Source: an uncultured Bacteroidales bacterium (GTDB taxonomy: Bacteria > Bacteroidota > Bacteroidia > Bacteroidales > Bacteroidaceae). From it: a stretch of 64,000 nt of DNA. Below the pieces are notes generated by a model. The model had not been told where the DNA came from. It made no database searches and saw only the letters and a list, made by a program, of their open reading frames with translations. The position numbers and the translations under genes were made by a program. This document shows positions 3,610 to 61,983 of this stretch, piece by piece (the first letter of the stretch is position 1; each line of letters starts with the position of its first letter). The stretch is from contig CADBQP010000027.1 in the NCBI GenBank assembly GCA_902796835.1, positions 29,712 to 93,711 of the forward strand, in the 5' to 3' direction.

Positions 3610-3685
3610 TATCTCCGAGATAATCCAAATTAGCTCGGAGATAATTTAAACTGTTGAGCCAACTCTTTAAACTGTCGAGCCAACT
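3610..3685. repeat. 21-bp-period intergenic repeat array, copy 1 (4 units)
   Basis: TATCTCCGAGATA-ATCCAAAT-TAGCTCGGAGATA-ATTTAAAC-TGTTGAGCCAACT-CTTTAAAC-TGTCGAGCCAACT. Confidence 0.85.
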
Positions 3686-3696
3686 ATGTGTAGATA

Positions 3697-4323
3697 TTAC
3701 TTTGGTAATTGGAAGAAGCGATAGAGATTACAGCCGACGAAATTGCCGAGAACAATGGAGAGATAATAAAAAGTAAGAGGTAGGAGGAAAGAGATTATCG
3801 TATCCATGGGTGTATTGAGCAGGTAGACGCAAGCATAAAAGGCGTCGGCGATACAGTGTGGAAAGCCACAAAGGATAAACGCTGGCACTGCAAAAAGAAG
3901 AGGCAACCAGTCTGAGAAATCTCTATTACGTCGCGCAAAATCTACGGCAAACGACATTAACAAGCCACATCCGATAGCGAGTAATCCTGTTCCGAGCCAT
4001 CCTATGCCTAATCGCGCCACAATTATACCTGTTGCCGCTTCGGGTAAGGCCAAAGGCGAGTAAAGGGATACGGCAGCTACAGCGAGCGTGCCAAGGATAT
4101 TACCGAGCAAAATGAGCAATAGCGGCAGGACATCCTTCCATCCGGTTATGAAGCCTGCTGTGCCAGTGTAGAGTTTAGCACGGTATTTAACTACGGCAAC
4201 TAAGCCGACGCAGAACAAGAACATGCCGAGGGCTGAATTGGCCAAAAACCCCCATCCAGCTACTGCGATGAGGATGCCAGAGAATAGCGATTGCGTTAAA
4301 ATTGGTAATTTTTGACTGGTCAT
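3697..4323 (-). CDS. Formate/nitrite transporter (FNT) family protein, short form
   Basis: 208 aa, ~6 hydrophobic helices; FNT-like motifs SGILI, LYTG, GNILG, CGLLM, GFPHCIAD; ATG at 4323 chosen. Confidence 0.75.
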   Translation of the reverse strand: MTSQKLPILTQSLFSGILIAVAGWGFLANSALGMFLFCVGLVAVVKYRAKLYTGTAGFITGWKDVLPLLLILLGNILGTLAVAAVSLYSPLALPEAATGIIVARLGIGWLGTGLLAIGCGLLMSFAVDFARRNRDFSDWLPLLFAVPAFILCGFPHCIADAFYACVYLLNTPMDTIISFLLPLTFYYLSIVLGNFVGCNLYRFFQLPK

Positions 4324-4420
4324 TGGTGATTGTTTGCAATTTCGTTTGATTTGACTCTTATTTTTTATTTCAAGCTGAAAGCATAGGGTAGTCGAAAGAA
4401 ATGAACTATTTGCATCTGGC

Positions 4421-5851
4421 TTATAGTGTATGAGAGGAGGAGCCATCGAAGCAATGAGTGCAGACATGATTGTGCGGCAATCCGATAGCACGTATAAGTG
4501 TTTCCAGTTTGGTGAAACGGAGTGAATGTAGTCCGAATTTCTCAGCGATACAATCCACCATTCGCTTATATTCTGGTGAATCGGTGATGGTATAGGCGTG
4601 TACTCGCTCTTCGTTCATCGCAGCTTCCTCGCCTTCTAATTCCGCAATGACGCGTCGGGTGATAAGTTCCATCACGGATTTTGATTCCGAGAAATTGATG
4701 AAGGGACATGCATAAACGAGTGGCGGACTAGCAATTCGCATGTGAATTTCTTTGGCTCCTCCCTCGAGCAGGCACCGTGTGTTGTCGCGCAACTGTGTTC
4801 CGCGCACAATAGAGTCATCACAAAGGAGTACACGACGATTCTGTATGATGGTGTTATTCTGTATGAGTTTCATCTTCGCCACCAGATTTCGCATATTCTG
4901 GCTCGAAGGCATAAAAGAACGAGCCCACGTCGTTGTATATTTAGTCACAGCTCGCCTATATGGCACGTTGTGGCCTTCAGAATATCCGATAGCCATGCCT
5001 ATGCCGGAGTCGGGCACACCGCAGCAGCAATCAACCTGCATATCATCTTCCTTTCCCATTTCGAAGCCTATATTATTGCGAACATCCTCCACATTACGAC
5101 CTTCGAAAACAGAGGTGGGAAAACCGTAGTACACCCATAAGAAAGAACAAATCTGCATGTGGTCGGGCAATGGTTCTGCCAGCTTTTCCATGCGATTGTC
5201 ATGCAACCGAACAATTTCGCCTGGTCCGAGGTTATGAACGAGGGTATAACCTAAGTTATAGAAAGCCGATGGCTCGCTTGCAGCACAGAAAGCACCTTCT
5301 TTTTGGCCAATGACGACCGGTGTACGTCCCCATAAGTCGCGCGCACACACCACTCCATTCTCTGTAAGCAGCATGAGGGACAGCGAACCTTTTATTTGCT
5401 CTTGCGCATAGCGAATACCTTCCTCGAGCGACGGTTTCTGAATAATCATCAATCCCACCAATTCCGTCGGGTTGACCTTTCCAGAAGAGAACTCGGAGAG
5501 GTGCATGTTGTGCTCAAGCGCTTGTTTCGCCAATTCTTCGAAATTGTTAATTTTACCTATGGTAATCAGTGCGAAGCGACCATGACGGGAATTGAACAAG
5601 AGGGGCTGCGCATCTGTATCGGAGATAATGCCTATTCCCGCATTACCGATAAACTTAGGCAGTTCTTCCTCCATTTTCGAACGGAACGAAGCCTTTGATA
5701 TAGAGTGTATTGAACGGTTGAAATGGCCTGTCGTCTCATCATATGTAGCCATTCCACCTCTGCGTGTACCCAGATGCGAAAGATAATCGGTACCATAGAA
5801 GACATCCGTCACACAAGGATATATACTGATAGCTCCAAAAAATCCAGCCAT
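4421..5851 (-). CDS. purF: Amidophosphoribosyltransferase-like protein lacking Cys1
   Basis: GVPDSG, PRPP loop DDSIVRGT, Fe-S cysteines (CSFLW, YACPF, CTHC); N-terminus MAGFFG. Confidence 0.88.
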   Translation of the reverse strand: MAGFFGAISIYPCVTDVFYGTDYLSHLGTRRGGMATYDETTGHFNRSIHSISKASFRSKMEEELPKFIGNAGIGIISDTDAQPLLFNSRHGRFALITIGKINNFEELAKQALEHNMHLSEFSSGKVNPTELVGLMIIQKPSLEEGIRYAQEQIKGSLSLMLLTENGVVCARDLWGRTPVVIGQKEGAFCAASEPSAFYNLGYTLVHNLGPGEIVRLHDNRMEKLAEPLPDHMQICSFLWVYYGFPTSVFEGRNVEDVRNNIGFEMGKEDDMQVDCCCGVPDSGIGMAIGYSEGHNVPYRRAVTKYTTTWARSFMPSSQNMRNLVAKMKLIQNNTIIQNRRVLLCDDSIVRGTQLRDNTRCLLEGGAKEIHMRIASPPLVYACPFINFSESKSVMELITRRVIAELEGEEAAMNEERVHAYTITDSPEYKRMVDCIAEKFGLHSLRFTKLETLIRAIGLPHNHVCTHCFDGSSSHTL

Positions 5852-5852
5852 A

Positions 5853-6818
5853 TTATTGATGTTTAACGGATGAATGATTAGTGAGGTAGGCGCAGATATT
5901 TGTTTCGATACGCTTGGCCAAGTCGGTCGTCTGCTCTTTAACGAACTTATCACCCGTTATACCTTCGTAGAGTTCGACATAGCGGTCAGTGATGGAGCCG
6001 ACAATCGCCTGAGTCATTTCCGGAACTTGCTGTCCGGCCTTGCCTTGGAAACCATTTTCCATGAGCCATTCGCGCACAAACTCCTTGGATAACTGACGTT
6101 GTGGCTTACCTGCTGCAAAACGCTCTGCGTAGTCTTCTGCATAGAAATAACGGCTGGAATCTGGTGTATGAACTTCATCCATGAGCATGACTTGGCCTTT
6201 ATAATTACCAAATTCATATTTAGTATCGACGAGCAAGAGTCCCTGTCTTTGTGCAATCTCCTGACCACGTTCAAAAAGCGCCAAGGCATATTTCTCCAAC
6301 AAGGCATATTCTTTCTCAGGCACCAGTCCACGCGCTATAATCTCTTCGCGAGATATATCCTCGTCGTGCGTTCCAATTTCTGCTTTGGTGGTTGGCGTGA
6401 TGATGGGTGTGGGGAATTTTTCGTTTTCTCTCATGCCTTCAGGCAGTTTCACACCACAGATTTCTCTGACACCAGCCTTGTAGGCACGCCAAGCGGAGCC
6501 ACACAAATAACCGCGAACAATCATCTCCACCGGATAGCCTTCGCAACGATAGCCTACCGAAACCATTGGATCGGGTGTGGCCAGCAGCCAGTTGGGCACT
6601 ATATCCCGTGTGGCATTGAGGAACTTGGCAGCTATCTGGTTGAGGATTTGTCCTTTGTAAGGAATTCCTTGTGGCAACACAACATCAAAAGCAGAGATGC
6701 GGTCGGTGGCCACTATGCATAGCAGGTCCTCCCCTATAAAATAGACATCACGCACCTTCCCGTGATACACATTGGTTTGTCCTGGAAATGAAAATTCGGT
6801 TGACGTTAAAGCATTCAT
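5853..6818 (-). CDS. purC: SAICAR synthetase (long Bacteroidetes type)
   Basis: [37 protein letters not shown]. Confidence 0.96.
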
Positions 6819-6848
6819 TTTTATTGCGTAAAAAAAAGGGTTTAGAAT

Positions 6849-9800
6849 TTATTTGTATTCACTCCATTCGCGGATGGCGAGCGAGTTGATAGGCACATCG
6901 AGGAAGGCATTAATAAAGGCTTCCGCCAATCGTGCATTAGTAATCAAGGGTATGTTGAGGTCCACAGCTGTTCGCCGCATGCGGTAATAGCTGTCGTGCA
7001 CAGAGTCTGCCAGCGTATCCACAGGGATTCCCACAAAAAGCTCAATCTCCTTATTATGCATCAAGTTTGAAACTATTGGTTGCTTCAGTCGGCCGTGCTC
7101 GTCTAAATGTTCGTTCTTGTAAACCCGTATGTTCGCCACTCCGAGGCCATTAAGGTAGTCGCTTGTTCCTCCGGTAGCATAGATGGTATATCCCCGATCC
7201 ACAAGTCGTTTAATTGTATCCAGCAAATGCGCCCTTTGTTTCGGTCCGCCAATAGCAAAGAGTATTTTTTTCTTTGGGATACGCATACCCACGGCCAACA
7301 TAGATTGTAGCAGCGCAGAGTTGGCATCTTCTCCCAGGCATCCCACCTCGCCTGTCGAAGCCATGTCCACACCTAGCACGGGGTCGGCATTTTGCAAGCG
7401 GTTGAATGAGAATTGCGATGCCTTCACACCCACATAGTCGAAATCGAAGAGCGACTTATTTGGCCTTTCGATAGGCAGGTCAAGCATGACACGTGTAGCA
7501 ATGTCGATAAAGTTGATTTTGAGTACCTTGCTCACAAACGGGAAGGAGCGCGAAGCTCGAAGGTTACACTCGATAACCTTAATTTCGTTCTCTCTTGCCA
7601 GATACTGAATGTTGAACGGACCGGATATGTTTAGTTCGCGAGCTATCTGACCCGAAATGCGCTTGATGCGGCGCACTGTCTCGACATACAGTCTCTGCGC
7701 TGGGAACATGATTGTTGCATCGCCAGAATGGACACCGGCATATTCCACATGCTCAGAGATGGCATAGGCTATAATTTCTCCGTTGCGAGCCACTGCATCC
7801 ATTTCCACTTCCTTGGTGTTGGTCATAAACTTTGAGATGACTACCGGATGTTCCTTTGAAACCTTGGCTGCCAACCGTAAGAACTTATGCAATTGCTCCT
7901 CGTTGGAACACACATTCATTGCTGCACCCGAAAGTACATAGGACGGACGAACAAGCACGGGATAACCCACACGCGCTACAAATTTCTCCATGTCTTCCTC
8001 AGAGGTCAGTGCGCTCCACTCGGGTTGATCCACGCCTATCCGGTCGAGCATGGCCGAGAATTTGTCGCGATCTTCCGCATTGTCTATTGATTTTGCCGAA
8101 GTGCCCAGGATTTTTACCTGCTGACCATCCAGCTTCATAGCCAAATTATTGGGTATCTGCCCTCCGGTCGAAACGATGACACCATGCGGATTTTCAAGCT
8201 CAATGATATCCATCACACGCTCAAACGTGAGCTCATCGAAATAGAGACGATCGCATGTGTCATAGTCCGTCGAAACCGTTTCTGGGTTAAAGTTTATCAT
8301 CACAGAGCGGTATCCGTTGTGACGAATGGTATTGAGTGCCTGCACTCCACACCAGTCAAACTCCACAGACGAACCAATACGATAGGCTCCAGAGCCCAAC
8401 ACGATAATCGACTTATGGTCGCCCGTATATTGAACGTCATTTTTTATGCCGCTATACGTGAGATATAGATAATTCGTTTGAGCAGGGAACTCTCCCGCCA
8501 ACGTGTCTATTTGTTTCACCACAGGCACTATGCCCATTCTCTTGCGCACTTGCCGCATGCGTAACACGGCCTGGTCCATTGTCATCGTTCGCCCCAGTCC
8601 CACAGCACGAGCAATCTGGAAGTCCGAAAATCCCAGTTGTTTGGCACGTAGCAGAAGGTCATATTCCAAGTGTTCCACACCATCCGTTCTTTTCAGTTCG
8701 GCATCGAGCTCGATAATATGCTCCAGGCGTTGCAAGAACCATCTATCAATCTTCGTCAGCTCGTGAATGCGGTCCACAGTGTAGCCCTCATACATGGCCT
8801 GCGCAATGGCAAAGATGCGTTTGTCGGTAGGTGCCTTCAGGGCTTCATCCAAATCATCCACGTGCAATTCTTTGTTCTCAGCAAATCCGTGCATGCCCTG
8901 TCCTATCATGCGCAAGCCCTTTTGAAGAGCATCCTCAAAGGTGCGGCCAATGGCCATCACCTCACCCACTGACTTCATGGAGCTGCCCAATTCGCGATTC
9001 ACACCGCGAAACTTGCCCAAGTCCCAACGCGGAATTTTGCAAACCACATAGTCCAACGCTGGTTCAAAAAAGGCCGACGTACTCTGCGTCACAGAGTTGG
9101 TCAGTTCAAATAGTCCGTAGCCTAAACCCAATTTAGTAGCCACAAAGGCCAGCGGATAGCCCGTAGCCTTCGACGCCAATGCCGAGGAACGACTCAGTCG
9201 CGCATTTACCTCGATTACGCGGTAGTCTTCCGACCCCGTGTCGAAAGCATACTGCACATTGCATTCACCCACAATACCCAAATGGCGGATGATGCGAATG
9301 GCCAGGGCACGTAGTTTGTGATATTCCGAATTGGTTAGCGTTTGTGAGGGTGCAATTACAATCGATTCGCCTGTATGAATGCCTAAGGGGTCAAAATTTT
9401 CCATGTTGCACACAGTGATGCAGTTGTCGTATCGGTCGCGCACCACCTCAAACTCAATTTCTTTCCAGCCCTTCAGCGATTTTTCCACCAACACTTGTGG
9501 TGAAAAAGAGAAGGCCTTCTCCACCATAGCGTCTAATTCTTGTTCGTTGTCGCAAAATCCAGAGCCCAGGCCACCCAGGGCATAAGCTGCACGAATAATA
9601 ACAGGATAGCCCAATTGTTTGGCAGCGTTTCGCGCATCCTCGACCGTTTCCACGGCCTCGCTCTTGATGGTCTTCACGCCTATCTTTTCCAGCTGACGCA
9701 CAAAGAGCTCACGGTCCTCAGTATTGATGATCGTCTCTACCGAAGTGCCCAGCACCCTTACGCCATACTTTTCCAACACTCCCCGGCGATACAATTCTAC

Positions 9801-10094
9801 GCCACAATTCAGTGCCGTCTGCCCGCCAAAGGCTAATAGAATACCGTCGGGCCGCTCCTTAGCAATGAGACGTTCCACAAACTCGGGCGTAACGGGCAAA
9901 AAGTAAATATGGTCAGCCATTCCTTCCGACGTTTGCACGGTGGCAATATTCGGATTTATCAGCACTGTTTCTATGCCCTCCTCGCGCAGGGCTTTAAGCG
10001 CTTGCGAACCCGAATAGTCAAACTCGCCAGCCTCGCCAATTTTCAGCGCACCCGAGCCAAGCACCAATACTTTGTTTATGTTTTCCAATCTCAT
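6849..10094 (-). CDS. carB: Carbamoyl-phosphate synthase large subunit
   Basis: GSGALKIGEAGEFDYSGSQA, duplicated ATP-grasp domains, C-terminal MGS domain; 1081 aa. Confidence 0.98.
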   Translation of the reverse strand: MRLENINKVLVLGSGALKIGEAGEFDYSGSQALKALREEGIETVLINPNIATVQTSEGMADHIYFLPVTPEFVERLIAKERPDGILLAFGGQTALNCGVELYRRGVLEKYGVRVLGTSVETIINTEDRELFVRQLEKIGVKTIKSEAVETVEDARNAAKQLGYPVIIRAAYALGGLGSGFCDNEQELDAMVEKAFSFSPQVLVEKSLKGWKEIEFEVVRDRYDNCITVCNMENFDPLGIHTGESIVIAPSQTLTNSEYHKLRALAIRIIRHLGIVGECNVQYAFDTGSEDYRVIEVNARLSRSSALASKATGYPLAFVATKLGLGYGLFELTNSVTQSTSAFFEPALDYVVCKIPRWDLGKFRGVNRELGSSMKSVGEVMAIGRTFEDALQKGLRMIGQGMHGFAENKELHVDDLDEALKAPTDKRIFAIAQAMYEGYTVDRIHELTKIDRWFLQRLEHIIELDAELKRTDGVEHLEYDLLLRAKQLGFSDFQIARAVGLGRTMTMDQAVLRMRQVRKRMGIVPVVKQIDTLAGEFPAQTNYLYLTYSGIKNDVQYTGDHKSIIVLGSGAYRIGSSVEFDWCGVQALNTIRHNGYRSVMINFNPETVSTDYDTCDRLYFDELTFERVMDIIELENPHGVIVSTGGQIPNNLAMKLDGQQVKILGTSAKSIDNAEDRDKFSAMLDRIGVDQPEWSALTSEEDMEKFVARVGYPVLVRPSYVLSGAAMNVCSNEEQLHKFLRLAAKVSKEHPVVISKFMTNTKEVEMDAVARNGEIIAYAISEHVEYAGVHSGDATIMFPAQRLYVETVRRIKRISGQIARELNISGPFNIQYLARENEIKVIECNLRASRSFPFVSKVLKINFIDIATRVMLDLPIERPNKSLFDFDYVGVKASQFSFNRLQNADPVLGVDMASTGEVGCLGEDANSALLQSMLAVGMRIPKKKILFAIGGPKQRAHLLDTIKRLVDRGYTIYATGGTSDYLNGLGVANIRVYKNEHLDEHGRLKQPIVSNLMHNKEIELFVGIPVDTLADSVHDSYYRMRRTAVDLNIPLITNARLAEAFINAFLDVPINSLAIREWSEYK

Positions 10095-10108
10095 GTGTAG
10101 TCAATAAT

Positions 10109-13766: not shown

Positions 13767-13767
13767 T

Positions 13768-33173: not shown

Positions 33174-33237
33174 AAAAAAACTATCTCGGAGATAATTTAA
33201 ATAGTTGAGCCAACAGTTTAAATTATCTCCGAGATAG
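33174..33237. repeat. 21-bp-period repeat copy 2 (3 units); perfect 21-bp inverted repeat, terminator-like on minus strand
   Basis: CTATCTCGGAGATAATTTAAA-TAGTTGAGCCAACAG-TTTAAATTATCTCCGAGATAG, followed by T7 on minus strand downstream of GH20. Confidence 0.85.
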
Positions 33238-33266: not shown

Positions 33267-35414
33267 TTACTCAATTTGCTCCAGCCTCCACGTGCCTTGC
33301 TGGCAGAGTGTGTCGTTGGTACCCCATGCAGCACAGCCGCTGTGGTTGGCCTGCAGCACTCGGCCGCTGCCATCACGCAACACTATGGCGCCACTGACAA
33401 AGTTGATTTCCTCACCATCGATGGGTTGTATAATGGGCTTAGTGGCTTTTTCTACACTAACGGGGCCTATCTTCACCTGCGGGTTGGCCACGTTCACAAA
33501 CACGTATTGTCGGCCCTGTCGCTGGCACAACCACTGCTCAGCAAGCGTGCTCTGAGGCGTGAAGTGCAGGTGGAGCTCGGAAGGCGATTTTGCATAGAGC
33601 GTGGAGCCCGCATACTTGGCCATATACCAACTCGAGGCGGAAACAATGCGATAGCGCCTGCCTGCTTTGGGCAGCACGATGGGCGCTTGCTTGAACTGCT
33701 CGTAGTCGGCGGAAATGAGCCCGCCTCGGTCGAAGGCTTTTTTCAGTTTTTTATAGTCGCTGGGCGAGGCATAACCTGCCTGCCCGGCCTTGTTTTGAAG
33801 GAGCAGCGCGGCCACGGCATTGCGCTCTTGTTCGGCCACGGTTTGAGTGGGGTCTATGTAGTGGCGGGCATAGACATAGCCCATCTGGCTGAGCAATGAA
33901 GCCTGTGTTTGGAGGCGGCGGCGGAAGTCGTCCCAATTCTTTTGTTCGGGGGCTGTCCATCCCACTTCGGCTATGGCCAGGGCGCGCGGCAGGAGCTGAT
34001 ATTCCATCTGCTCGGCTGTGCGACACGTTTCGGTCCAAAGGTTGGCCTGTGGCCCAAGACAATATTGGGCAGCATCGCCCTTGATTTTCTCAATGGGGTT
34101 GACGGCATAGATAGACGGCAGGCTGTTCACATCCTTGGCGCTGTATCCTCCCTGATAGGGTTCTTCGACGAAAGCCATGTCTTCGGGCATCTGAATAAGG
34201 TCGAGATAGCAAGGATATACGGGCACACTGATGCAGGAGAATCCCTTTTCGGCGGCCTGCGCGGTGTAGTTGAGGCCACGCCAGCACATGACAGTGGGAC
34301 GAATGGCGTTGTCGGCTTTCCAGTGGGCCAGGAGTTCGTCCCAAACTATGATGTTTTTGTTGTATTTTCCTTTGAGGAAAGAACCGAGCTCTTCTACGAG
34401 CCACGACTGCAGCTCGTCTACTCCCTTGAGTCCCTTTTCGGCGATGCGCCGCTGGCAGTCGGCATTGTTTTTCCACACATCGGTGGGACACTCGTCGCCG
34501 CCAAGGTGAATGTAGGGGCCGGGAAAGACCTCGGCCACGTGGGAAAGCACACATTTCAGGAAGTCTATCACGCGGTCGTCGCCTACGTTGAGCACGTCTT
34601 TCGACACTCCGGCTGCTACGCGCACGGAGTATTTCTTGCTGGGATCGCACGAAAACTCGGGATAGGAGGCTATAGCCGCCACCATGTGTCCCGGCAGGTC
34701 GATTTCGGGAATGATTTCTATGTTGAGGCTGGCGGCATAGTCGACCACCTCGCGCAGGTCTGCCAAGGTGTAGAAAAGGCCCTTGCCATAGGGTGTGTCG
34801 TCATAGAACCACCCCACTCCGCGGTTCACGAACGACGAGTCGCGTTGCGTGCCTACCTGAGTGAGGCGCGGATATTCGGGAATTTCGATGCGCCAGCCCT
34901 GGTCATCGGTAAGGTGCCAATGAAAACGGTTTAGTTTGTAGTAGGCCATCATGCGAAGCACTTTCTTCACCTCTTCCTTTGTGAAGAAATGGCGTGAGCA
35001 GTCAAGCATGAGTCCGCGATAGTCGAACTGGGGATAGTCGCGCACGAAGAGGCAGGGCAGCGAGCACGTCGCTCCCGATTCGTCGGCATTCATCATCACG
35101 AGTTGGCGCAGCGTTTGCAGGGCATAGAAGTAGCCGGCTTTTTCGCGGGCGCCCACTTCTATTTTCTGGTCACTGATGCGCAGGGTGTAGCCCTCGTTGG
35201 GCAACGAAATGTCGCGATGCAGCCTTATGGGACCCTGACTCCAAAGCTTAAGGGCTACTGAATCGATTTGCGACAGTAGCTGGGCCGTGTTTGCCACGGC
35301 AAAAGTACCGCCCTGGCCTTGCATATGCTGCGGCAGCGGAACAATGTCGGCCTTCTGCGCAGTAGCCGCCGCAAATCCACACAGAAAGGCAATTAAGAGC
35401 GTAAGGTTTTTCAT
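33267..35414 (-). CDS. Secreted GH20 beta-N-acetylhexosaminidase with C-terminal accessory domain
   Basis: Signal peptide; YRGLMLDCSRHF, FHWHLTDDQGWRIEI, IPEIDLPGH, HLGGDE. Confidence 0.93.
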   Translation of the reverse strand: MKNLTLLIAFLCGFAAATAQKADIVPLPQHMQGQGGTFAVANTAQLLSQIDSVALKLWSQGPIRLHRDISLPNEGYTLRISDQKIEVGAREKAGYFYALQTLRQLVMMNADESGATCSLPCLFVRDYPQFDYRGLMLDCSRHFFTKEEVKKVLRMMAYYKLNRFHWHLTDDQGWRIEIPEYPRLTQVGTQRDSSFVNRGVGWFYDDTPYGKGLFYTLADLREVVDYAASLNIEIIPEIDLPGHMVAAIASYPEFSCDPSKKYSVRVAAGVSKDVLNVGDDRVIDFLKCVLSHVAEVFPGPYIHLGGDECPTDVWKNNADCQRRIAEKGLKGVDELQSWLVEELGSFLKGKYNKNIIVWDELLAHWKADNAIRPTVMCWRGLNYTAQAAEKGFSCISVPVYPCYLDLIQMPEDMAFVEEPYQGGYSAKDVNSLPSIYAVNPIEKIKGDAAQYCLGPQANLWTETCRTAEQMEYQLLPRALAIAEVGWTAPEQKNWDDFRRRLQTQASLLSQMGYVYARHYIDPTQTVAEQERNAVAALLLQNKAGQAGYASPSDYKKLKKAFDRGGLISADYEQFKQAPIVLPKAGRRYRIVSASSWYMAKYAGSTLYAKSPSELHLHFTPQSTLAEQWLCQRQGRQYVFVNVANPQVKIGPVSVEKATKPIIQPIDGEEINFVSGAIVLRDGSGRVLQANHSGCAAWGTNDTLCQQGTWRLEQIE

Positions 35415-35477
35415 AGTATTGAAAATAAGGATAAGTTACTTGATTAGGACGGACTTTGAAGCACCAATAGCAAGATG

Positions 35478-36917
35478 CTATCCCACGCTGCCCTCAAGCG
35501 AAACGCTCAGGAGCTTTTGCGCTTCAACTGCAAACTCCATGGGCAGTTTGTTGATTACGTCGCGTGCATATCCGCCTACGATAAGCGACACAGCCTCTTC
35601 GGTGGGGATGCCGCGCTGGTTGCAATAGAGGAGTTGCTCCTCCGAAATCTTCGATGTGGTGGCCTCATGTTCCACTATGGAATCGTTGTGGTGCACGTCG
35701 ATATAAGGAAACGTATGGGCACCGCACTCATCGCCCAAAAGCAAGGAGTCGCACGAACTGTAATTGCGCGCCCCGGCAGCCTTTGAGCCCACTTTCACAA
35801 GGCCGCGATAGCTGTTTTGGCTCTTGCCTGCCGAAATGCCCTTCGAAATGATGGTGGAGCGGGTGTTGGCTCCCACGTGTATCATCTTTGTGCCCGTGTC
35901 GGCCTCCTGATAGTTGTTGGTCACGGCCACACTGTAGAATTCGGCCTGCGAGCCTTCGCCCATGAGAACGCATGAGGGATACTTCCAGGTGATGGCGCTA
36001 CCGGTTTCCACCTGTGTCCACGACAATTTTGAATTGGCACCGCGAAGCTGCCCGCGCTTGGTGACGAGATTATATACTCCGCCACGACCTTCGCTGTCGC
36101 CTGGATACCAGTTCTGAACGGTGCTATACTTCACCTCTGCGTCTTTGTTCACCACAATTTCAACGATGGCGGCATGCAGTTGGTTTTCATCGCGCATGGG
36201 AGCCGTGCAACCCTCAAGATAACTCACGTAGCCTCCATCGTCGCACACGATGAGGGTGCGCTCAAACTGGCCCGTATTTCGGGCATTGATGCGAAAGTAT
36301 GTGGAAAGTTCCATGGGGCAGCGCACACCCTTGGGGATATAGACGAAGGAGCCGTCGGAAAACACAGCACTGTTGAGCGCAGCAAAATAATTGTCGCGAT
36401 AGGGCACCACACTTCCCAGGTATTTGCGCACCAGTTCGGGATTTTCGCGCACAGCCTCGCTGATGCTGCTGAAAATGATGCCTTTCTCCTGAAGCTTTTC
36501 CTTAAAGGTGGTCTTCACCGAAACCGAATCCATAACGGCATCGACAGCAACGCCGCTGAGCGCCATACGCTCTTCAAGGGGGATGCCAAGTTTGTCGAAA
36601 GTCTTCATCAACTCCGGGTCGAGTTCTGTTGAGCCGGTCTTCTTCCGTGTGGGGTCGGCATAATAGGATATAGCCTGATAGTCGATGGCTGGCAAATGCA
36701 CATGGGCCCACGACGGCTGCTCCAACGTGAGCCAATAGCGATAGGCTTTCAGACGGAATTCAAGCAACCACTCAGGCTCGTCCTTGCGCTGCGAAATTTG
36801 CCGAATGACGTCCTCATTCAGGCCTCGCTCAATGATTTCGGTCTCTACGTCAGTAGTAAAACCATACTCATATTTCTTCTCGGCCAAGCCGCGCACAAAA
36901 TCGTTTCCGCTGCTCAT
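35478..36917 (-). CDS. sufB: Fe-S cluster assembly protein SufB
   Basis: [47 protein letters not shown]. Confidence 0.97.
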
Positions 36918-37477
36918 TTCTCCTGGGATTTATGCATGTCGACCCACAGGGTATCGCCCGGCTGAAAATCGGCCGGAAGTTTTTCTGAAGTCTTCTTACT
37001 ATCTTGCTCATTGGGCTGACCAAAGGAATTGAAGAGCACACCCACCATGGCTTTGGTCGGTTCAAAGAGCTTTGAGCCTTCGGTACGCGACTCGTTGAGT
37101 ATGTGCAAGGCACTCATCACGTTGAGCACACAACTGATGAGAATGGCATATTTTAGCAGGCTCACAGCTGCGCCCAGCAAACTATTGGGCAGGCCCAATT
37201 GAAGGCCGTTTAGCGCAGAGGTGAGGATCGTGGCTACCAGGCCGAGCACGATGGGCACAAGTATCCAGAGGATGAAGAAAGCCACTATGTTGGTCACGAT
37301 GTTTGCCTCTGACCCCTTCATCACCAGATATTCGCCCAGGTAGCTGTAGCAGGTGGCAGCGATGGCCAGGCCTACGAGCCAGCCAATTCCCGACACCAGT
37401 TCTTTAAAGAAACCGTTGCGCCAGCCGTTAATGATGGCCCACAAGGCCACTACTATTATAAAAATGTCTATATACAT
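36914..37477 (-). CDS. CvpA (colicin V production) family membrane protein
   Basis: DIFIIVV...[10 protein letters not shown]; 4 TM helices; infB-cvpA-sufB synteny. Confidence 0.85.
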
Positions 37478-42546: not shown

Positions 42547-42609
42547 TACCGAGCCAACACGCAGAAAAGTTGAGCCAACTCGCAAAACTATCAAGCCAAC
42601 TCTGCAAAA
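42547..42609. repeat. 21-bp-period repeat copy 3 (3 degenerate direct units)
   Basis: TACCGAGCCAACA-CGCAGAAA-AGTTGAGCCAACT-CGCAAAAC-TATCAAGCCAACT-CTGCAAAA. Confidence 0.75.
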
Positions 42610-51942: not shown

Positions 51943-52009
51943 AAAGAGTTGGCTCGACTGTTCGAACAGTTGAGCCAACTCTTTAAACTACCGGGCCGAC
52001 AGTTTCAAC
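51943..52009. repeat. 21-bp-period repeat copy 4 (3 units; 42-bp hairpin)
   Basis: AGTTGGCTCGACT-GTTCGAAC-AGTTGAGCCAACT-CTTTAAAC-TACCGGGCCGACA-GTTTCAAC. Confidence 0.85.
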
Positions 52010-54319: not shown

Positions 54320-54364
54320 GATTGTGTATAAGTGTTTATTGGTTTATGCATTAAAATGTCGGCG

Positions 54365-54372
54365 CAAAAATA
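54365..54372 (-). promoter_or_regulatory. Internal -7 promoter element before the second skp
   Basis: TATTTTTG 45 nt upstream of the ATG. Confidence 0.5.
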
Positions 54373-54477
54373 ACACAAATAATTGACTTCTCCCCGCCTT
54401 GTTCACACATTTTAGCGACGGGGCAAGGCTTGTAAGTTTTTTTTAACGCTGCGGGCGTTGCTAAACAAGGTGGTCGG

Positions 54478-54996: not shown

Positions 54997-55017
54997 AGGT
55001 TGATTATTTTCTTGGGG

Positions 55018-57657: not shown

Positions 57658-57702
57658 TTTATTATATAGTGTATCCTATCGGAAAGCCGACAGGCTTAGG
57701 GT

Positions 57703-58446
57703 TTAGGCTTTGGAGACTTGTTCGCTGGTTTTTCCGTAGCGACGCTCGCGCTGTTGGAAGTCGTAAATTGCTTTATAAAATTCTTCTTCGTCAAAGTCGG
57801 GCCAATAGGTGTCGCAGAAATAGAACTCTGAATAGGCACATTGCCACAACAGATAGTTACTCAGTCGCTGCTCACCTCCGGTGCGAATAAGCAGGTCGGG
57901 GTCGGGCATGAAGTTGGTGGAAAGGGCTGCTTCGATATCATCTTCGGTTACGTCGGCTGGCCGAAGTTCTCCTTTTTCCACTCGCCTGCAGATTTGCTGA
58001 ACGGCATTGGTAATTTCCCACTTCGACGAGTAACTCAAGGCAATGATCTGAACCAGTCCCGTATTCTTGGCCGTGTGATCCACACATCGTTCAATGCTCT
58101 TTCTCACCGTTTCGGGCAAACGGGCCGTATCACCTATGATGCGCAACCGCACATTGTTTTTCATGTAGAGGCTTTCCTCGAGCGAGGTTAGAATAAGCGA
58201 CATGAGGGCCTCCACCTCTTCAGTAGGCCGATTCCAGTTCTCGGTAGAGAATGCATAGAGTGTAAGGTACTTTATCCCGAGCTGCGAAGCGGCTTCTGTT
58301 ATCTTGTGAACAGTTTCCACTCCTTGCTGATGGCCTAAGCTGCGCGACATCCCACGCTCTTTTGCCCATCGGCCGTTGCCATCCATGATAATGGCCACGT
58401 GACGGGGTATGCGCTCTGCATTGAGAAGGTCTTTATAATTAGGCAT
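57703..58446 (-). CDS. uppS: Undecaprenyl diphosphate synthase
   Basis: [36 protein letters not shown]. Confidence 0.97.
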
Positions 58447-58491
58447 GACGCTATTCTTCGTTTTATTCTTTTGGCTTTCGTTATGATTTGC

Positions 58492-59196
58492 TCACCATTC
58501 GTCCTTATTGCAGGTGGGACACTTTTCTGAGAAACTATAGGTGAGTGTAAACAATGCCACGTTGTAATGGTCTTTGTTTTTGAACATTTGAGATTTGATG
58601 CCGTGTGGCGCCTCAAGCCCTTCGAGTTTGTCGCTCGTAGTGAAATGCATGCGCCACTCAAAACCCAGATTCAGGCGCGGAGCCACGCGATATTTTAGGC
58701 CAAAGCCCAAGGGTATGGTAGGAGCAAAGGCTTTCCCTTTACTTGAATACACAGCGCCCAGTCCTAACTGCAGATAGGGCACGAGACGATGTAGGCCTTG
58801 ATAGCCCTTATAATATCCATAGGGCAGGAAGTGGAGTTCGTAGAGCGCGCTGAGATCGATGAGAGAGGTGCTGAACTCATATTGCAATCGGTCTGAGCCT
58901 GCTTGCCCCACCACTGCGGGCATGAAATCGTCCACATTCTTGGTGTTTCCCGAAAGACTGGCATATCCCAACGAGAGTTTCACGGCTGAACGGCGATTGA
59001 TGACGTAGCGAAAGGTGCCGCTGCCTTGAAAACCAGGCTGACCGAAAAGTTTTGTATTGGCATCGTTCACACCAAACAGTCCGCCGAGACCGCCACCTAT
59101 CTCCATGGTATACTCGGCATCTTCTTGTGCCATAGCAGGCAGCAGGGGAAGAAAACTAAATAATATTAATATTATATGGTGTGAAAGCTTCTTCAT
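58492..59196 (-). CDS. Outer-membrane beta-barrel, PorG/DUF6089-like
   Basis: Signal peptide, EIGGGLG, alternating beta-strand pattern, SDKLEG; position directly upstream of uppS. Confidence 0.7.
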   Translation of the reverse strand: MKKLSHHIILILFSFLPLLPAMAQEDAEYTMEIGGGLGGLFGVNDANTKLFGQPGFQGSGTFRYVINRRSAVKLSLGYASLSGNTKNVDDFMPAVVGQAGSDRLQYEFSTSLIDLSALYELHFLPYGYYKGYQGLHRLVPYLQLGLGAVYSSKGKAFAPTIPLGFGLKYRVAPRLNLGFEWRMHFTTSDKLEGLEAPHGIKSQMFKNKDHYNVALFTLTYSFSEKCPTCNKDEW

Positions 59197-60584
59197 TATT
59201 TTCGGGGCTTCTTATAGACGGCGGGCATGTTGTCCCAACCCATTTTGTAGGGACGTCCACGCCACACTTGCCCGCTTCCGCCGCAACATATCCAAATGTA
59301 GTTTTCGCCGTCAACCAAGACACTCAGGCTGTTAGCAGCATCGGCTTGGACCGGCAGCATGTTGCTTGCCTGTGTCCACTGGCGTCCATAGTCGTTCGAC
59401 GCGTAAGGTTGTTCCAGCCCTCCCTCGGCATTCAAACCATAGAGTCGCACTTCGCCGTCGTAGGCTATGAGCGAGGTATGGGCGAGCGAAACAGGATAGG
59501 GCTTCGCCACATCGGAGTTTTGCGGCAGGTAGTTCCAATCAAAGATGTTTATTCCTTTCTGGTCTACATCGCGTTTCCACACTGCAGCCTCACCCCCCGA
59601 GAGCCCTGCCAGGACTAGACACGTGTAGTTTGAGTTGGTGCGTGAGGGCAGGCTCACTACAGCCAGCGGGCTGTTAGGTAGGGGGGCATCTTCGTCAAGG
59701 GGCTGTTCCTCCCAGGTGCTTCCGTCGGAAGACGCATAGAGCTTTCCTTCCGAGACTGCCAGCATTTGATTGCCGACCACTGCCAGCGCCTCAAAGGGGA
59801 CTGGAGCCGTGGCTGCTGTCCAATTGACGGCGTCGGTCGAGGTTTGCAAGTTTCCGCTGCTGCTGAGCGCATAGTATTGTGTTCCCATTGCCACCACGCT
59901 TTCTACGTTGATGTCGGTCGCACCCAATGGCGTACGCATCCATTCTGGCGACGAAGTGGCTTGAGCAGTAAGCACCACGGGCACTGCGCCCTCCATTCCA
60001 AAAATGGCAAGTGTAGAACCGCAAAGAGCAGCCTTCACATTCGAAAGGGCTGCCAGCTCAGGCACTGTGGCGGCAACGGGCCAAGCATATTCTTCGCCGT
60101 TTTGCTGATGAACGTTGATTTCAACTTTGTAAGGGCGCTCCACATAGCCTTCTTCCGTAAAGGCATATACTGTCACCGTGCGCGGTGCACTAAAGTCGGT
60201 GCTGTCGGTCAGTACGAATGTGGTGTCGTTTCCGGTTGTGAGCGACTTGATAGCCATTATGGCGCCTACATATGAAAAGTCTGTAAACACCACCTTTTGG
60301 GCATCGGTGCCTACGGGAAGGGAGTCGGCGTTGTAAATGCGCCCTGCCGTCTGGTCGATGTGCATGGGATAGAGTGAGCCTACGATTGAGGCATAATAGA
60401 GACTGTCTGCACCGCTGTCGGTTGTGGCATGGCGCAGGCAGCGAAGGGAACCCAGGGTCACGTTCGACACATAGGCTGCCTGCGTATATTCGGAGTCATC
60501 GCTGCTGCTTGTACTACACGATGCCAGGCCTGCCACGAGCAGCAGGAGGGCTAACCAGGACAGACCTGAATAATGTTGCTTCAT
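59196..60584 (-). CDS. Predicted surface lipoprotein (DUF6242-like)
   Basis: Lipobox LASC followed by S/D/E-rich export-like signal; IYNADSLPVGT; W-containing repeats. Confidence 0.7.
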   Translation of the reverse strand: MKQHYSGLSWLALLLLVAGLASCSTSSSDDSEYTQAAYVSNVTLGSLRCLRHATTDSGADSLYYASIVGSLYPMHIDQTAGRIYNADSLPVGTDAQKVVFTDFSYVGAIMAIKSLTTGNDTTFVLTDSTDFSAPRTVTVYAFTEEGYVERPYKVEINVHQQNGEEYAWPVAATVPELAALSNVKAALCGSTLAIFGMEGAVPVVLTAQATSSPEWMRTPLGATDINVESVVAMGTQYYALSSSGNLQTSTDAVNWTAATAPVPFEALAVVGNQMLAVSEGKLYASSDGSTWEEQPLDEDAPLPNSPLAVVSLPSRTNSNYTCLVLAGLSGGEAAVWKRDVDQKGINIFDWNYLPQNSDVAKPYPVSLAHTSLIAYDGEVRLYGLNAEGGLEQPYASNDYGRQWTQASNMLPVQADAANSLSVLVDGENYIWICCGGSGQVWRGRPYKMGWDNMPAVYKKPRK

Positions 60585-60649
60585 AGGTTTATTTTTCTTC
60601 GTGGGCGATTTGCTATGCCTTGCATAGGGTCGCACTTCTCATTAACGCG

Positions 60650-60657
60650 CAAAAATA
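60650..60657 (-). promoter_or_regulatory. -7 promoter element, lipoprotein-porG-uppS-bamA-skp operon
   Basis: TATTTTTG. Confidence 0.55.
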
Positions 60658-60848
60658 CGACATTTTTCTGAACTTAGGGTAAATTCTGCGGCTTTTTATG
60701 CACGCAAGGCTTGTTTCCGAGGGTTTTTGCAGCGCCTCGCAAAGTGCTCATCCCTATTATGGGTTGCCCATTACGATGCAACTCCCACCGAGCTGCCACC
60801 CGATGGGAGTTGTCTTTTCCATGTCTGCCAGGGGGGCTTAAGTCTCGA

Positions 60849-61715
60849 TTATTGGTCGGCCGGCGCCTGGTCGATAAGCTCCATGAACTGGTCGAGCTTT
60901 GGCGTAATGATGATTTGTGTGCGGCGGTTGCGCTGCTTGCCCCGCTCGCTGTCGTTGGCGGCCACGGGATTATACTCCCCACGTCCGGCAGCTGTGAGCC
61001 GCTTGGGGTCTACACCATAGCGCGTTTGCAGCTCCTGCACCACACTCGAGGCTCTCAGGGCGCTGAGGTCCCAGTTGTTGCGAATGTTGGGGCGGCTGAT
61101 GGGCACATCGTCGGTGTTGCCTTCTACCAGCACCTCGTAGTCCTTATAGTCGGTGATGATCTTGGCAATTTTCGAGAGGGTTTCGCCTGCACGGGGGCCT
61201 ATTTCGTAGGAACCGCTCTTATAGAGCATGTTGTCGGCCAGCGAAATGTAAACCACGCCCTTGAGCACTTGTACATCGACGTCCTGCATCTCGTCGCGGG
61301 TGAGCGAACGGGTGAGTTTGTTGGTAAGGGCCTGGTTGAGCGAGTCGCTCTTCGACTTAGCCTCAACGAGTTGCTTGATGAATTTGTTGGATGCGTTGAT
61401 TTCGTCTACGAGCTTGGAGATGTTCACCTGGCCTTTTTCCACATTGCGGTTGTACGACTTCATCAGGTTGGCATATTGCGCCTGAAGGTCTTTGTTGCGC
61501 TGCTGCTCCTCGGCCAGCCGTGCTGCCAAACTCTTGCTTTCGCTTGTATATTCGGCGATTTTAATCTTGGCATCGCTCAGGCTGTTGCTGAGCTCGCCCT
61601 TTTCGGTGAGCAGGCGGTCGTAGTTGCTTTGAAGCTCGGCATACTTTTGTTTGCTCACACAGCTGGTAGTGAGCATCGCGGTCATTGCTACCGCGAGCAT
61701 GAGTATTTTCTTCAT
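60849..61715 (-). CDS. OmpA/MotB-family peptidoglycan-binding lipoprotein with coiled coil
   Basis: Lipobox TTSC; VEGNTDD, NWDLSALRA, GRGEYNP, NRRTQI. Confidence 0.9.
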   Translation of the reverse strand: MKKILMLAVAMTAMLTTSCVSKQKYAELQSNYDRLLTEKGELSNSLSDAKIKIAEYTSESKSLAARLAEEQQRNKDLQAQYANLMKSYNRNVEKGQVNISKLVDEINASNKFIKQLVEAKSKSDSLNQALTNKLTRSLTRDEMQDVDVQVLKGVVYISLADNMLYKSGSYEIGPRAGETLSKIAKIITDYKDYEVLVEGNTDDVPISRPNIRNNWDLSALRASSVVQELQTRYGVDPKRLTAAGRGEYNPVAANDSERGKQRNRRTQIIITPKLDQFMELIDQAPADQ

Positions 61716-61921
61716 GTGTTTCATGTTGTTTCTCAGTTTTAGTGATACATGTGCACTGCCTATTGGCGTGCTTTAACTATCTTTCGTGGGCGAAGTTAGG
61801 CAAATTGACGCGAGGAGGAAAAATTTTTCAGTAATATTAGCGTTTGAAGCGGCCTTTTTGCAATATTTAAGCATGTGGGGCGAGACGGTCCGCAGTTTTT
61901 CACGAAAGGACGGTGCCTGAA

Positions 61922-61983
61922 AAGAAAGAGTTGGCTCAACAGTTTAAACTGTCGGGCCAACTCTTTCTTCTGTCGGGCACATA
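61922..61983. repeat. 21-bp-period repeat copy 5 (3 units; 48-bp hairpin)
   Basis: AGTTGGCTCAACA-GTTTAAAC-TGTCGGGCCAACT-CTTTCTTC-TGTCGGGCACATA. Confidence 0.85.

Follow-up and report, generated by a model that had tools for sequence, protein, structure and literature searches.

Five arrays and a genome-wide family

The 64,000 nt stretch of DNA analysed here (the window) comes from an uncultured rumen Bacteroidales and carries short palindromic repeats in tandem at five separate loci. Are these copies of a dispersed element, sites for a DNA-binding protein, or signals at the ends of genes? All five loci reported in the first-pass annotation were found at their coordinates, each with 3–4 units in a 21 bp register:

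Array 1, 3610..3685, unstranded: four units, B TATCTCCGAGATA, B′ TAGCTCGGAGATA, A+ TGTTGAGCCAACT and an A+ variant TGTCGAGCCAACT; 11 bp beyond the stop codon of a formate/nitrite-transporter-family gene on the minus strand, and upstream of the tRNA-Tyr/Gly/Thr-tuf cluster.
Array 2, 33182..33236, unstranded: three units, B, A+, B; 30 bp beyond the stop codon of a GH20 gene on the minus strand, and 164 bp upstream of a type III glutamine synthetase gene.
Array 3, 42547..42609, unstranded: three degenerate, direct A-like units, ACCGAGCCAACA, AGTTGAGCCAACT and TATCAAGCCAACT, whose linkers are CGCAGAAA, CGCAAAAC and CTGCAAAA; between rimP-nusA on the minus strand and mreB on the plus strand, in a divergent spacer.
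Array 4, 51947..52009, unstranded: three units, A− variant AGTTGGCTCGACT, A+ AGTTGAGCCAACT and D-like TACCGGGCCGACA; downstream of a minus-strand S13-peptidase/TonB_C gene, and convergent with a small ferredoxin gene (gene call from another strain).
Array 5, 61929..61983, unstranded: A− AGTTGGCTCAACA, TGTCGGGCCAACT (a D/A hybrid) and TGTCGGGCACATA (third unit, decayed); 34 bp beyond the stop codon of asd on the minus strand, and upstream of an OmpA-family gene.

Within the window, GTTGAGCCAAC occurs seven times at ≤1 mismatch against 1.29 expected (seven was reached in 0 of 100 shuffles), and TATCTCSGAGATA four times against 0.04 expected. The source genome (2.0 Mb in 68 contigs) is a MAG, 94% complete, from which the high-copy repeats are missing. 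A conservative catalogue of this genome, made with ten core consensi at ≤2 mismatches and comprising arrays of 2–6 units, holds 309 units in 114 arrays, 6.7 kb in total, with array 3 too degenerate to be included. The genome-wide search confirmed that the observation of five loci was real and showed that it had been understated, as the copies far exceed five and their phase is conserved.

The strict 21 bp period held genome-wide. There were 185 in-phase core pairs at 21 bp and 0–3 at each of 18, 19, 20, 22, 23 and 24 bp, and neighbouring A/B cores were 21 bp apart in 89 of 100 cases, 42 bp apart in six and 63 bp apart in one. A sequence-blind detector, which pairs two 13-mers each having at least 5 of 6 arm pairs complementary, peaked solely at 21 bp (90 against a background of ~24) and 42 bp (44). 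The same genome contains a second family with a 22 bp period. Multi-unit arrays are essentially all intergenic; the predicted ends of ORFs are overlapped by only a few arrays. At gathering score, Rfam returned four tRNAs from the window, none of them overlapping an array, and neither Rfam nor the literature searched yielded a matching described Bacteroidales repeat; the first-pass annotation had not recognised a named family either.

The repeated unit is a 21 nt palindrome

A 13 bp core and an 8 bp linker had been proposed as separate parts. Both are present in the 21 bp register, but they are better read as one 21 nt palindrome, AAAS-core-STTT, with a 13 nt core and self-complementarity about the middle base (a 9 bp stem and a 3 nt loop, 9+3+9 nt). 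Such bricks abut without a spacer, which accounts both for the exact 21 bp period and for the TTT|AAA 'linker', and the second symmetry centre at TTT|AAA arises because a palindromic unit is repeated in tandem. The TTTAAA-type linker noted earlier is real (consensus S-TTT-AAA-Y), and cores and linkers are indeed palindromic, but this is one property of the whole unit rather than two. Across the whole unit the consensus reads AAAS-T[R]T[Y]N...N[R]A[Y]A-STTT. Unit boundaries are visible at the array ends, where the three bases at −4 to −2 ahead of the first core are A in 76, 85 and 91% of cases, and those at +2 to +4 beyond the last core are T in 85, 79 and 70%.

Where two kinds of core had been recognised, at least five classes (A, B, C, D and E) were found, all in one frame (T-R-T-Y-N...N-R-A-Y-A) and mixed in phase within arrays. 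Classes C, D and E are TATCGCSGCGATA, TGTCGGSCCGACA and TATCGAGCCGATA, and a common, imperfect variant of B is TAGCTCGGAGATA. The T at unit position 7 and the A at position 15 are each more than 90% conserved. Arm positions covary between core classes: among 150 distinct units, 172 cells were changed on both sides compared with 100 ± 12.5 after shuffling (0 of 500 shuffles reached this value) and the covariation score was 0.313 against 0.198 (slid controls, 0.04–0.19), a test that is partly circular because the units were gathered using palindromic consensi. The pair counts were GC 62 and AU 54 at positions 6–16, CG 68 and UA 39 at 8–14, and GC 105 and UA 34 at 9–13.

Inverted doublets favour one arrangement, with A−A+ seen 19 times and A+A− four times (p = 0.0026). 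A−A+ is the commonest arrangement in the first catalogue (14 of 68 multi-unit clusters), and direct arrays (A+A+, A−A−, B B) are about equal to it in frequency. In REPIN systems the inverted doublet is the form that mainly replicates.

Arrays are enriched at gene ends and many resemble terminators

One hundred arrays could be classified by the orientation of their flanking genes: 33 were in convergent, 51 in tandem and 16 in divergent spacers, compared with 17, 57 and 26 expected from intergenic length (chi-square p = 7e-5). Arrays are enriched between convergent genes and depleted in promoter spacers. Within tandem spacers, 32 arrays were closer to the stop codon of the gene before them and 19 to the start of the gene after them.

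The long hairpins suggested by the first-pass annotation were obtained for window arrays 1, 2, 4 and 5 (z between −3.5 and −9.7), but array 3 gave no significant fold (z = −1.6 as RNA, −0.2 as DNA). Array 2 in its entirety is a near-perfect 55 nt palindrome, and its minus-strand RNA folds into a single long hairpin (−40.1 kcal/mol, z = −9.7) followed by GUUUUUUU. The minus-strand RNA of array 4 has a ~19 bp hairpin followed by UUUUUUCUCUC (−40.2 kcal/mol, z = −5.8), that of array 5 a hairpin (−37.5 kcal/mol, z = −6.6) followed by CUUUCUUUUC, and that of array 1 folds with z = −3.5. In arrays 2, 4 and 5, the transcribed strand carries a stable hairpin and then a U-run, the arrangement of an intrinsic terminator. 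Array 3 and the direct A+ arrays do not show it; the direct A+ arrays with GAAAAAAC linkers (e.g., G000 C17:4190) form weak hairpins only.

Across the genome, most arrays fold into a long hairpin bordered by A- and T-runs, and a T-run of at least 4 is found on about half of the array ends. Long T-runs (≥6 of 9 nt) are present on 45 of 117 sides facing a gene 3′ end and on 18 of 83 facing a gene start (Fisher p = 0.014), and arrays in convergent spacers fold more strongly than those in divergent spacers (−0.48 versus −0.29 kcal/mol/nt, p = 0.0056). Both biases are modest, and bricks inserting into, or deriving from, pre-existing terminators could equally give them. The A-run, long hairpin and T-run anatomy and the bias towards gene 3′ ends had been missed in the first-pass annotation.

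The reading we prefer, at a probability of about 0.55, is that of a lineage-specific, REP/BIME-like hairpin repeat, many copies of which are probably bidirectional terminators. A REP-like dispersed element had been one of the original suggestions, and it agrees with the copy number, intergenic position, gene-3′-end enrichment, hairpin covariation, restriction to one species and whole-unit gain or loss between strains. The GTAG/CGTC tag is absent from both ends of the unit consensus. Once transcribed, or extruded as single-stranded DNA, adjacent bricks would form long hairpins lying between an A-run and a T(U)-run, so that many copies may work as bidirectional intrinsic terminators or as hairpins protecting mRNA 3′ ends. 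Not every copy can serve in termination, since divergent promoter spacers contain 16% of the arrays and the direct A+ arrays fold weakly; the more weakly folding promoter-spacer copies may be tolerated passengers.

New bricks might join beside existing ones or at the T-run/A-run junctions of terminators, which would explain how different core classes come to share one register. The agent could be a hairpin-recognising enzyme, or recombination or gene conversion between loci. A wider proposal can be put forward only tentatively: the 21 nt bricks, the 22 nt family of the same genome and the 21/22 bp brick arrays of other uncultured Bacteroidales might share one order-wide copy mechanism, in which a non-RAYT, hairpin-recognising enzyme pastes single units at the T-run|A-run junctions of terminators or existing units, building evolvable, modular bidirectional terminators, with the core co-evolving with the enzyme in each lineage. 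The cores AAAACGSCGTTT, GAGCGCTC and TCTGCGGAG of other uncultured Bacteroidales are, we presume, different from those of the 21 nt family.

If the arrays were instead phased binding sites, then each core would be the site of a dimer, and 21 bp, or two helical turns, would place the cores on one face of the DNA for cooperative binding by a nucleoid-structuring, insulating or global regulatory protein. The strict period, the palindromic cores, the conserved T and A at unit positions 7 and 15, the presence of some arrays in promoter spacers (including that upstream of mreB) and an orientation that is unbiased relative to transcription (26 same, 20 opposite) are all compatible with this. The GC to AT covariation of the arms at 6–16, 8–14 and 9–13 is not what a single sequence-specific dimer would predict between core classes; either several paralogous readers would have to exist or none at all. 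One abutted hairpin unit is as long as the period, which makes the helical-phase argument unnecessary, and the unit length (9+3+9 nt) accounts for it more simply than two helical turns do. The 22 bp period of the second family, the enrichment at convergent gene ends with depletion in promoter spacers, and the finding that promoter-proximal array 3 is both the most degenerate and the most polymorphic of the arrays also argue against binding sites, and we consider this explanation unlikely.

Flanking sequences and the search for a transposase

All-against-all BLAST of the 150 bp flanks of the 114 arrays revealed no shared leader, tail or TIR, the flanks of nearly all arrays being unique. Only 12 pairs of flanks were related, and these came from a small sub-family of ~5 arrays by a contig-end repeat, a duplicated locus and a handful of short matches. 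The contig-end repeat is a non-coding sequence of ~400 bp in which at least 19 contig ends stop, and the same break occurs in eight other assemblies. About five of its copies directly precede an E−/A−/A+ array with a common TTTGCATAAAGCAGGCGC leader.

This high-copy element, at which every short-read assembly of the species breaks, is a candidate for a conventional IS that would move the arrays in trans, as a MITE-like element with the arrays forming a minisatellite in or beside it, and BrickBuilt provides a Bacteroidales precedent of a species-specific, intergenic, tandem-repeat MITE (PMC4596501). Most copies of the ~400 bp repeat have no array alongside, however, and, of the 114 arrays, almost all are set in unique sequence without leader, tail or TIR; no target-site duplication is evident. 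The interior of the element is absent from all assemblies seen, and any transposase that it might encode is missing with it. Movement of this kind appears very unlikely, and a BrickBuilt-type MITE, as judged by leader, tail and TIR in the flank BLAST of the 114 arrays, was rejected.

REP/REPIN systems depend on a RAYT (TnpA-REP), a Y1 HUH transposase whose single-copy gene typically has REPs on either side, and a RAYT/IS200-type enzyme was the partner proposed in the first-pass annotation. None was found: among all six-frame ORFs, the best E-value was 0.22 with an HMM trained on 120 enterobacterial RayT sequences, a weak model that misses the IS608-type TnpA in PDB. Regular expressions for the HUH...Y motif gave no credible match in this 94%-complete MAG without its high-copy repeats. 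The genes bracketed by two arrays were housekeeping genes, judging from their translations.

Strain variation and lineage restriction

Arrays hold fixed positions within the species and change by gain or loss of whole units, unit-for-unit replacement and point changes. Arrays 1, 3, 4 and 5 were present in all strains examined. Array 1 was found in eight other strains, where one SNP toggles GAGCTA and GAGATA; array 3 was found in six, with unit 2 replaced by a copy of unit 3 in L153; and arrays 4 and 5 were each unchanged in four. In a strain with 97.6% identity the difference amounted to exactly one 21 bp unit. No empty site matching a filled one was seen among the strains examined; it is copy number and similarity that suggest mobility.

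Within the sequences searched, the 21 nt family is restricted to one species. This genome has 23 occurrences of the A-A pair pattern; none was found in 18 genomes of the same genus (searched for the A-core pattern only) or in 12 of the same order. No 21 bp signal was detected in related genera, for which 541 kb of sequence from 80 Bacteroidaceae genomes and 94 kb from the nearest Asd relatives were covered (635 kb in all), and a metagenome contig collection gave only three true matches, all from the same species. At the one orthologous site compared, downstream of asd, the relatives have no array and carry unique, ordinary terminator hairpins at the position of array 5.

Could the arrays be non-mobile, i.e., ordinary terminators or spacers grown by local slippage, their likeness maintained by a selected shared word (such as a DNA-uptake sequence) or by gene conversion? 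Their terminator-like anatomy and gene-3′-end bias, the slippage of whole units between strains and the stable array positions in every strain examined would fit. Set against these are the five core classes, which would require five selected words, the mixture of classes that single arrays keep in a common register, something slippage at a locus does not produce by itself, and the unrelated terminators of the nearest relatives at asd. The commonest 11-mer of the family, GTTGAGCCAAC, has only 88 exact copies in 2 Mb, and multi-unit arrays are almost all intergenic. The proposal is quite improbable. Uptake motifs (DUS/USS) occur more than a thousand times in a genome, often within coding DNA; a DNA uptake sequence was rejected on the 88 copies in 2.0 Mb, the intergenic arrays and the at least five core words.

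Comparison with known systems

The 13 bp palindromic core recalls matS/MatP, the analogy drawn in the first-pass annotation. matS sites contain one copy of the motif each, number ~23, are confined to the Ter macrodomain of Enterobacteria, and are neither tandem nor hairpin-covarying; MatP is not known beyond a few gammaproteobacterial orders.

Bidirectional intrinsic terminators share the A-run, the GC-containing hairpin and the T-run, with the same layout on either strand, and the placement just past stop codons and between convergent genes; array 5 occupies the slot of the relatives' unique terminator. Ordinary terminators, however, are neither related in sequence across loci nor modular, whereas 16% of the arrays lie in promoter spacers and some barely fold. 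The comparison includes the inverted-DUS-pair terminators of Neisseria, which are also terminators built of a repeated sequence; a DUS is a single 10–12-mer with thousands of copies, many of them inside genes.

BrickBuilt of Porphyromonas gingivalis (Klein et al. 2015) is a minisatellite-MITE of tandem, ~2-turn, 23 nt units without spacers, always intergenic, found in one species and its sister and varying in unit number by locus and strain; it has 19 copies only, up to ~23 units per locus and promoter activity, and its array lies between a conserved leader and a tail ending in IS-type TIRs (PMC4596501). The present family is likewise from Bacteroidales, spacer-free, tandem, intergenic, limited to one species and variable in unit number, but has palindromic units without leader, tail or TIR, comprises ~114 short arrays of 2–6 units, and shows no sequence similarity to BrickBuilt.

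The REP/BIME/REPIN elements of Enterobacteria (E. coli among them) and Pseudomonas share with it short, imperfect, high-copy, extragenic palindromes that are commonest at gene 3′ ends and between convergent genes, clusters in which units of both orientations form mosaics, a sequence peculiar to the species or lineage, one favoured inverted doublet in REPINs (A−A+ here), and proposed roles in termination and mRNA 3′-end protection. Described REP superfamilies are defined by a terminal GTAG/CGTC tetranucleotide (PMC3733652), absent here. Other differences are the much shorter unit (21 nt, against 20–40 nt plus separate linkers in REP), bricks that abut at an exact period, the several core classes in one frame, the frequent arrays of 3–6 units in direct orientation, and the lack of a RAYT hit, a weak test in this MAG. 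No published description of the family was found in the literature searched, and it is best regarded as a species-specific repeat resembling the REP/BIME of E. coli.

Copy number and periodicity of the 21-bp repeat

Each of the five intergenic loci singled out in the first-pass annotation carries three or four 13-nt cores separated by 8-nt gaps in a strict 21-bp register, exactly as described there.

Arrays in the window, with the upstream gene and the fold of the minus-strand RNA
Array 1, 3610-3685: formate/nitrite-transporter-family gene, minus strand; fold z = -3.5
Array 2, 33182-33236: GH20 gene, minus strand; fold z = -9.7, U-run after hairpin
Array 3, 42547-42609: divergent rimP/mreB spacer; no significant fold (z = -1.6)
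Array 4, 51947-52009: S13-peptidase/TonB_C gene, minus strand; fold z = -5.8, U-run after hairpin
Array 5, 61929-61983: asd, minus strand; fold z = -6.6, U-run after hairpin

The sequence GTTGAGCCAAC, with up to one mismatch, occurs seven times in the window against 1.29 expected, and TATCTCSGAGATA four times against 0.04. The exact 11-mer GTTGAGCCAAC is present in 88 copies across the source assembly (G000; 2.02 Mb, 68 contigs, 52% G+C, listed as 94% complete). The window spans C27:29712-93711 of this assembly. Genome-wide, 89 of 100 distances between neighbouring class A or B cores were 21 bp, six were 42 bp and one was 63 bp. A sequence-blind detector of paired 13-mers, each with at least five of six arm pairs complementary, gave peaks only at 21 bp (90 vs a background of about 24) and at 42 bp.

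The dispersed 21-bp family is confirmed, and is larger than first stated: a search with ten core consensi, allowing up to two mismatches, catalogued 114 arrays of two to six units each (309 units, 6.7 kb). In-phase neighbours number 185 at 21 bp, and 0-3 at each of the other spacings within 18-24 bp. The catalogue is conservative, since the degenerate array 3 of the window falls outside it.

Unit structure and core classes

The family has at least five core classes, which combine in many ways, and in phase, inside single arrays.

Core classes
A: TGTTG-AGC-CAACA; asymmetric centre, hence an orientation (A+ or A-)
B: TATCTC-S-GAGATA; common imperfect form TAGCTCGGAGATA
C: TATCGC-S-GCGATA
D: TGTCGG-S-CCGACA
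E: TATCG-AGC-CGATA

Outside the terminal cores, the first core is preceded by AAA-S (A at 76, 85 and 91%) and the last is followed by S-TTT (T at 85, 79 and 70%), so the unit is AAAS + core + STTT, 21 nt in length. It is self-complementary about its middle base, the stem being 9 bp and the loop 3 nt. Neighbouring units abut with no spacer, and the apparent 'palindromic linker' (STTT/AAAS) is the junction of two units. The self-complementarity previously noted for cores and for linkers therefore stands, but as one property rather than two, and the period equals one hairpin length. This is an unusually regular architecture. A rival explanation of this phasing is an array of binding sites for a protein on double-stranded DNA.

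Pairing in the arms was examined in 150 distinct units. At pair 6-16, 62 units have GC and 54 have AU; the counts are 68 CG and 39 UA at pair 8-14, and 105 GC and 34 UA at pair 9-13. Changes on both sides were counted in 172 cells, compared with 100 +/- 12.5 in shuffles (0 of 500 as high), and slid controls scored far below the true frame, in a covariation test that is partly circular because palindromic consensi were used to gather the units. Unselected in-phase neighbours of seed units had 2.2 complementary pairs, against 1.2-1.3 in out-of-phase controls. Arrays 1 and 2 have a stretch ATTTAAA-[A core] in common, which accounts for the 30-bp direct repeat around a nucleotide block plus glnA (window 3634-33214); both being members of the genome-wide family, the repeat gives no support to a bracketed island there.

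Genomic location and predicted folding

By the gene calls of a crude greedy ORF finder, practically every multi-unit array is intergenic, which rules out a coding repeat. The 100 classified arrays occupy 33 convergent, 51 co-directional and 16 divergent spacers, where intergenic length predicts 17, 57 and 26 (chi-square p = 7e-5). Within co-directional spacers, the median distance is 69 bp to the upstream stop codon and 162 bp to the downstream start. The orientation of the A core is independent of transcription direction (26 in agreement, 20 opposed), ruling out a transcription-strand-specific RNA element. Inverted doublets are biased, with 19 of the form A-A+ vs four of A+A- (p = 0.0026). 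No leader, tail or terminal inverted repeat was found in the array flanks, which are unique except for one duplicated locus and a sub-family of about five arrays adjoining repeat copies at contig ends.

In a few cases the 3′ end of a long predicted ORF takes in an array, perhaps because the ORF end was miscalled or because the array has replaced the last codons of the gene.

Arrays within ORF 3′ ends (contigs of G000)
C30:37002-37057, in ORF 35250-37134
C48:78124-78158, in ORF 77528-78347
C18:5577-5632, in ORF 5109-5646

Window arrays 1, 2, 4 and 5 lie 11-70 bp past the stop codon of a minus-strand gene. Their minus-strand RNAs fold into long hairpins, and the DNA strands fold similarly. Long T-runs (at least six of the nine nt after the terminal core) were counted for each side of an array, because the T-run pairs with the A-run within the stem; they are present on 45 of 117 sides facing a gene 3′ end and on 18 of 83 facing a gene start (Fisher p = 0.014). 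Convergent arrays fold more strongly than divergent ones (-0.48 vs -0.29 kcal/mol per nt, p = 0.0056). A simple terminator/promoter scan of the window returned about as many hits as shuffled sequence, under rules that leave out long compound hairpins. From sequence and position, we infer that many arrays function as intrinsic terminators in both directions or as 3′-end hairpins, and that those in promoter spacers are probably tolerated passengers. A second rival explanation takes the family to be non-mobile terminators that were homogenised by selection or conversion.

In the nearest relatives fetched (86-87% Asd identity, one being Pseudoprevotella muciniphila), the position of array 5 downstream of asd is taken by ordinary, unrelated terminator hairpins.

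One relative with 86% Asd identity (contig L172) carries a palindrome of its own, ATCCACTTTCAAAARTTGAAA.TTTTTCATTTTTTGAAAGTGGAT, twice within 260 bp downstream of asd (L172:5385-5450 and L172:5640-5700). Judging from this pair, other lineages may have their own terminator-like repeat families.

Variation among strains and distribution among relatives

Contigs of other strains were fetched by exact-protein look-up. Arrays 1, 3, 4 and 5 are present in all strain contigs examined, and arrays 4 and 5 are invariant among them. In unit 2 of array 1 (window 3631-3643), nine strains differ by a single C/A SNP that interconverts the imperfect core TAGCTCGGAGATA and the perfect core TATCTCGGAGATA, the imperfect form being the commoner genome-wide. 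One strain has a copy of unit 3 in place of unit 2 in array 3, and the array at C33:11912 of G000 and its counterpart on a contig of 97.6% identity are exactly one 21-bp unit apart in length. Within the species, therefore, arrays keep their positions, and their turnover is in whole units.

The family is restricted to the source lineage, and from the sequences sampled it is apparently absent from relatives. A pattern for paired A cores matched 23 times in G000, and in none of 18 congeneric genomes or 12 genomes from its order. No 21-bp peak was seen in 541 kb of sequence around mreB from 80 other Bacteroidaceae genomes, nor in 94 kb around asd of the nearest relatives. Pattern scanning of a metagenome contig collection returned 68 stretches, of which only three were true family members, all of the same species (97.6-99.4% identity), and a scan of IMG/VR gave no family member. 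Nearly all matches in the metagenome and viral sets were 7-codon repeats in coding sequence, unrelated to the family. The species turns up commonly in assemblies with sample names suggesting rumen metagenomes.

Other repeats of the genome

A further tandem family, also dispersed, repeats in G000 with a strict 22-bp period, entirely outside the window. Its unit is approximately CACCACGGTGGGAAAACTTTTT (palindrome GGTGRGAAAA.TTTTYCACC), in 65 units at 23 loci (e.g., C33:22393-22500, C48:43349, C5:41208, C65:50499 and C53:18300), and neighbouring units are 22 bp apart in 33 cases and 20, 21, 23 or 24 bp apart in none.

Two further repeats are associated with contig ends.

High-copy repeats at contig ends (C, contigs of G000; L162, a further fetched contig)
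Non-coding element, about 400 bp, at least 19 copies: L162:7830-8219; C64:9-326; C26 end; C21 end; C17:114-391; at least 15 other contig ends
Module, about 125 bp, about 30 copies at 75-80% identity: C27:101979-102081 (outside the window); C26 end, 474-599 (reverse complement); many contig starts (C8, C21, C30, C38, C49, C51, C57, C63 and others)

The longer element terminates in a strong terminator hairpin (AATCCCCGTCTGCGAACG...CGTTTGCGGGCGGGGATTTTTTG), and all eight other assemblies of the species break there. It matched no credible Rfam family and no plasmid, and its interior was not recovered from the assemblies examined. About five copies are directly followed by a 21-bp array (E-, A-, A+) with a common 'TTTGCATAAAGCAGGCGC' leader. 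The shorter module consists of a terminator hairpin and then a Bacteroidetes-type promoter (...AAAGTCGCGAAAAGTTGACAGCC...TATCTTTGCA); at contig starts it mostly points outward, as if driving a multi-copy sequence missing from the assembly. Because of the palindromic families and these high-copy repeats, assemblies of the species fragment in the same places. A third rival explanation of the 21-nt arrays is a MITE mobilised by the longer of these high-copy elements, the one that lacks its interior in the assemblies.

Possible mode of spread and significance

Speculatively, new units could be added at T-run/A-run junctions beside existing units or terminators, by some hairpin-recognising activity or by inter-locus recombination or gene conversion. 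Addition at junctions would explain why core classes that are each present at dozens of other loci share one register.

Small palindromic repeats of the REP, BIME and REPIN kinds are well studied in Proteobacteria; to our knowledge, they have hardly been described in Bacteroidales, the order that dominates gut and rumen. The present family is a clean case, with one hairpin unit, several co-varying classes and more than 100 spacer-free stacks in a 2-Mb genome. If they terminate transcription, the units would provide Bacteroidales engineering with naturally occurring terminators that are modular and tunable, and would offer a strain-typing marker for an uncultured rumen species. Should their spread depend on a dedicated enzyme, this would represent a new repeat-and-enzyme partnership beyond that of REP-associated transposases (RAYTs).

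Comparison with known repeat systems

CRISPR is ruled out by the 8-nt 'spacers', which are conserved rather than unique, and DUS/USS by density and coding distribution. No Rfam family matches the arrays, and literature searches found no description of a 21-nt family of this kind.

No RAYT was detected with an enterobacterial RayT HMM or motif regular expressions, a low-sensitivity test on a MAG without its high-copy repeats; the profile is judged insensitive because RayT matches only itself among PDB Y1 transposases. Genes bracketed by two arrays were considered as transposase candidates, but from their translations they look like housekeeping genes (ribosomal protein S1, acetate kinase, phosphotransacetylase, a PAP2-type phosphatase and a PEP-utilising enzyme).

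Within Bacteroidales, the nearest precedent is BrickBuilt of Porphyromonas gingivalis, a species-limited, intergenic repeat of tandem 23-nt units (PMC4596501). In BrickBuilt, which is a MITE, the units lie between a long leader and a long tail segment, and there are IS5-type inverted repeats (PMC4596501), whereas the 21-nt arrays have none of these.

The closest known kind is the REP/BIME/REPIN class. The earlier REP-like reading is partly supported, by copy number, extragenic 3′-end bias and lineage limits. The 21-nt units lack the GTAG/CGTC tag that described REP superfamilies carry (PMC3733652). Like REP, BIME and REPIN sequences, the units are high-copy short palindromes, in extragenic arrays biased to gene 3′ ends, and they form lineage-specific mosaics in both orientations with one inverted doublet preferred.
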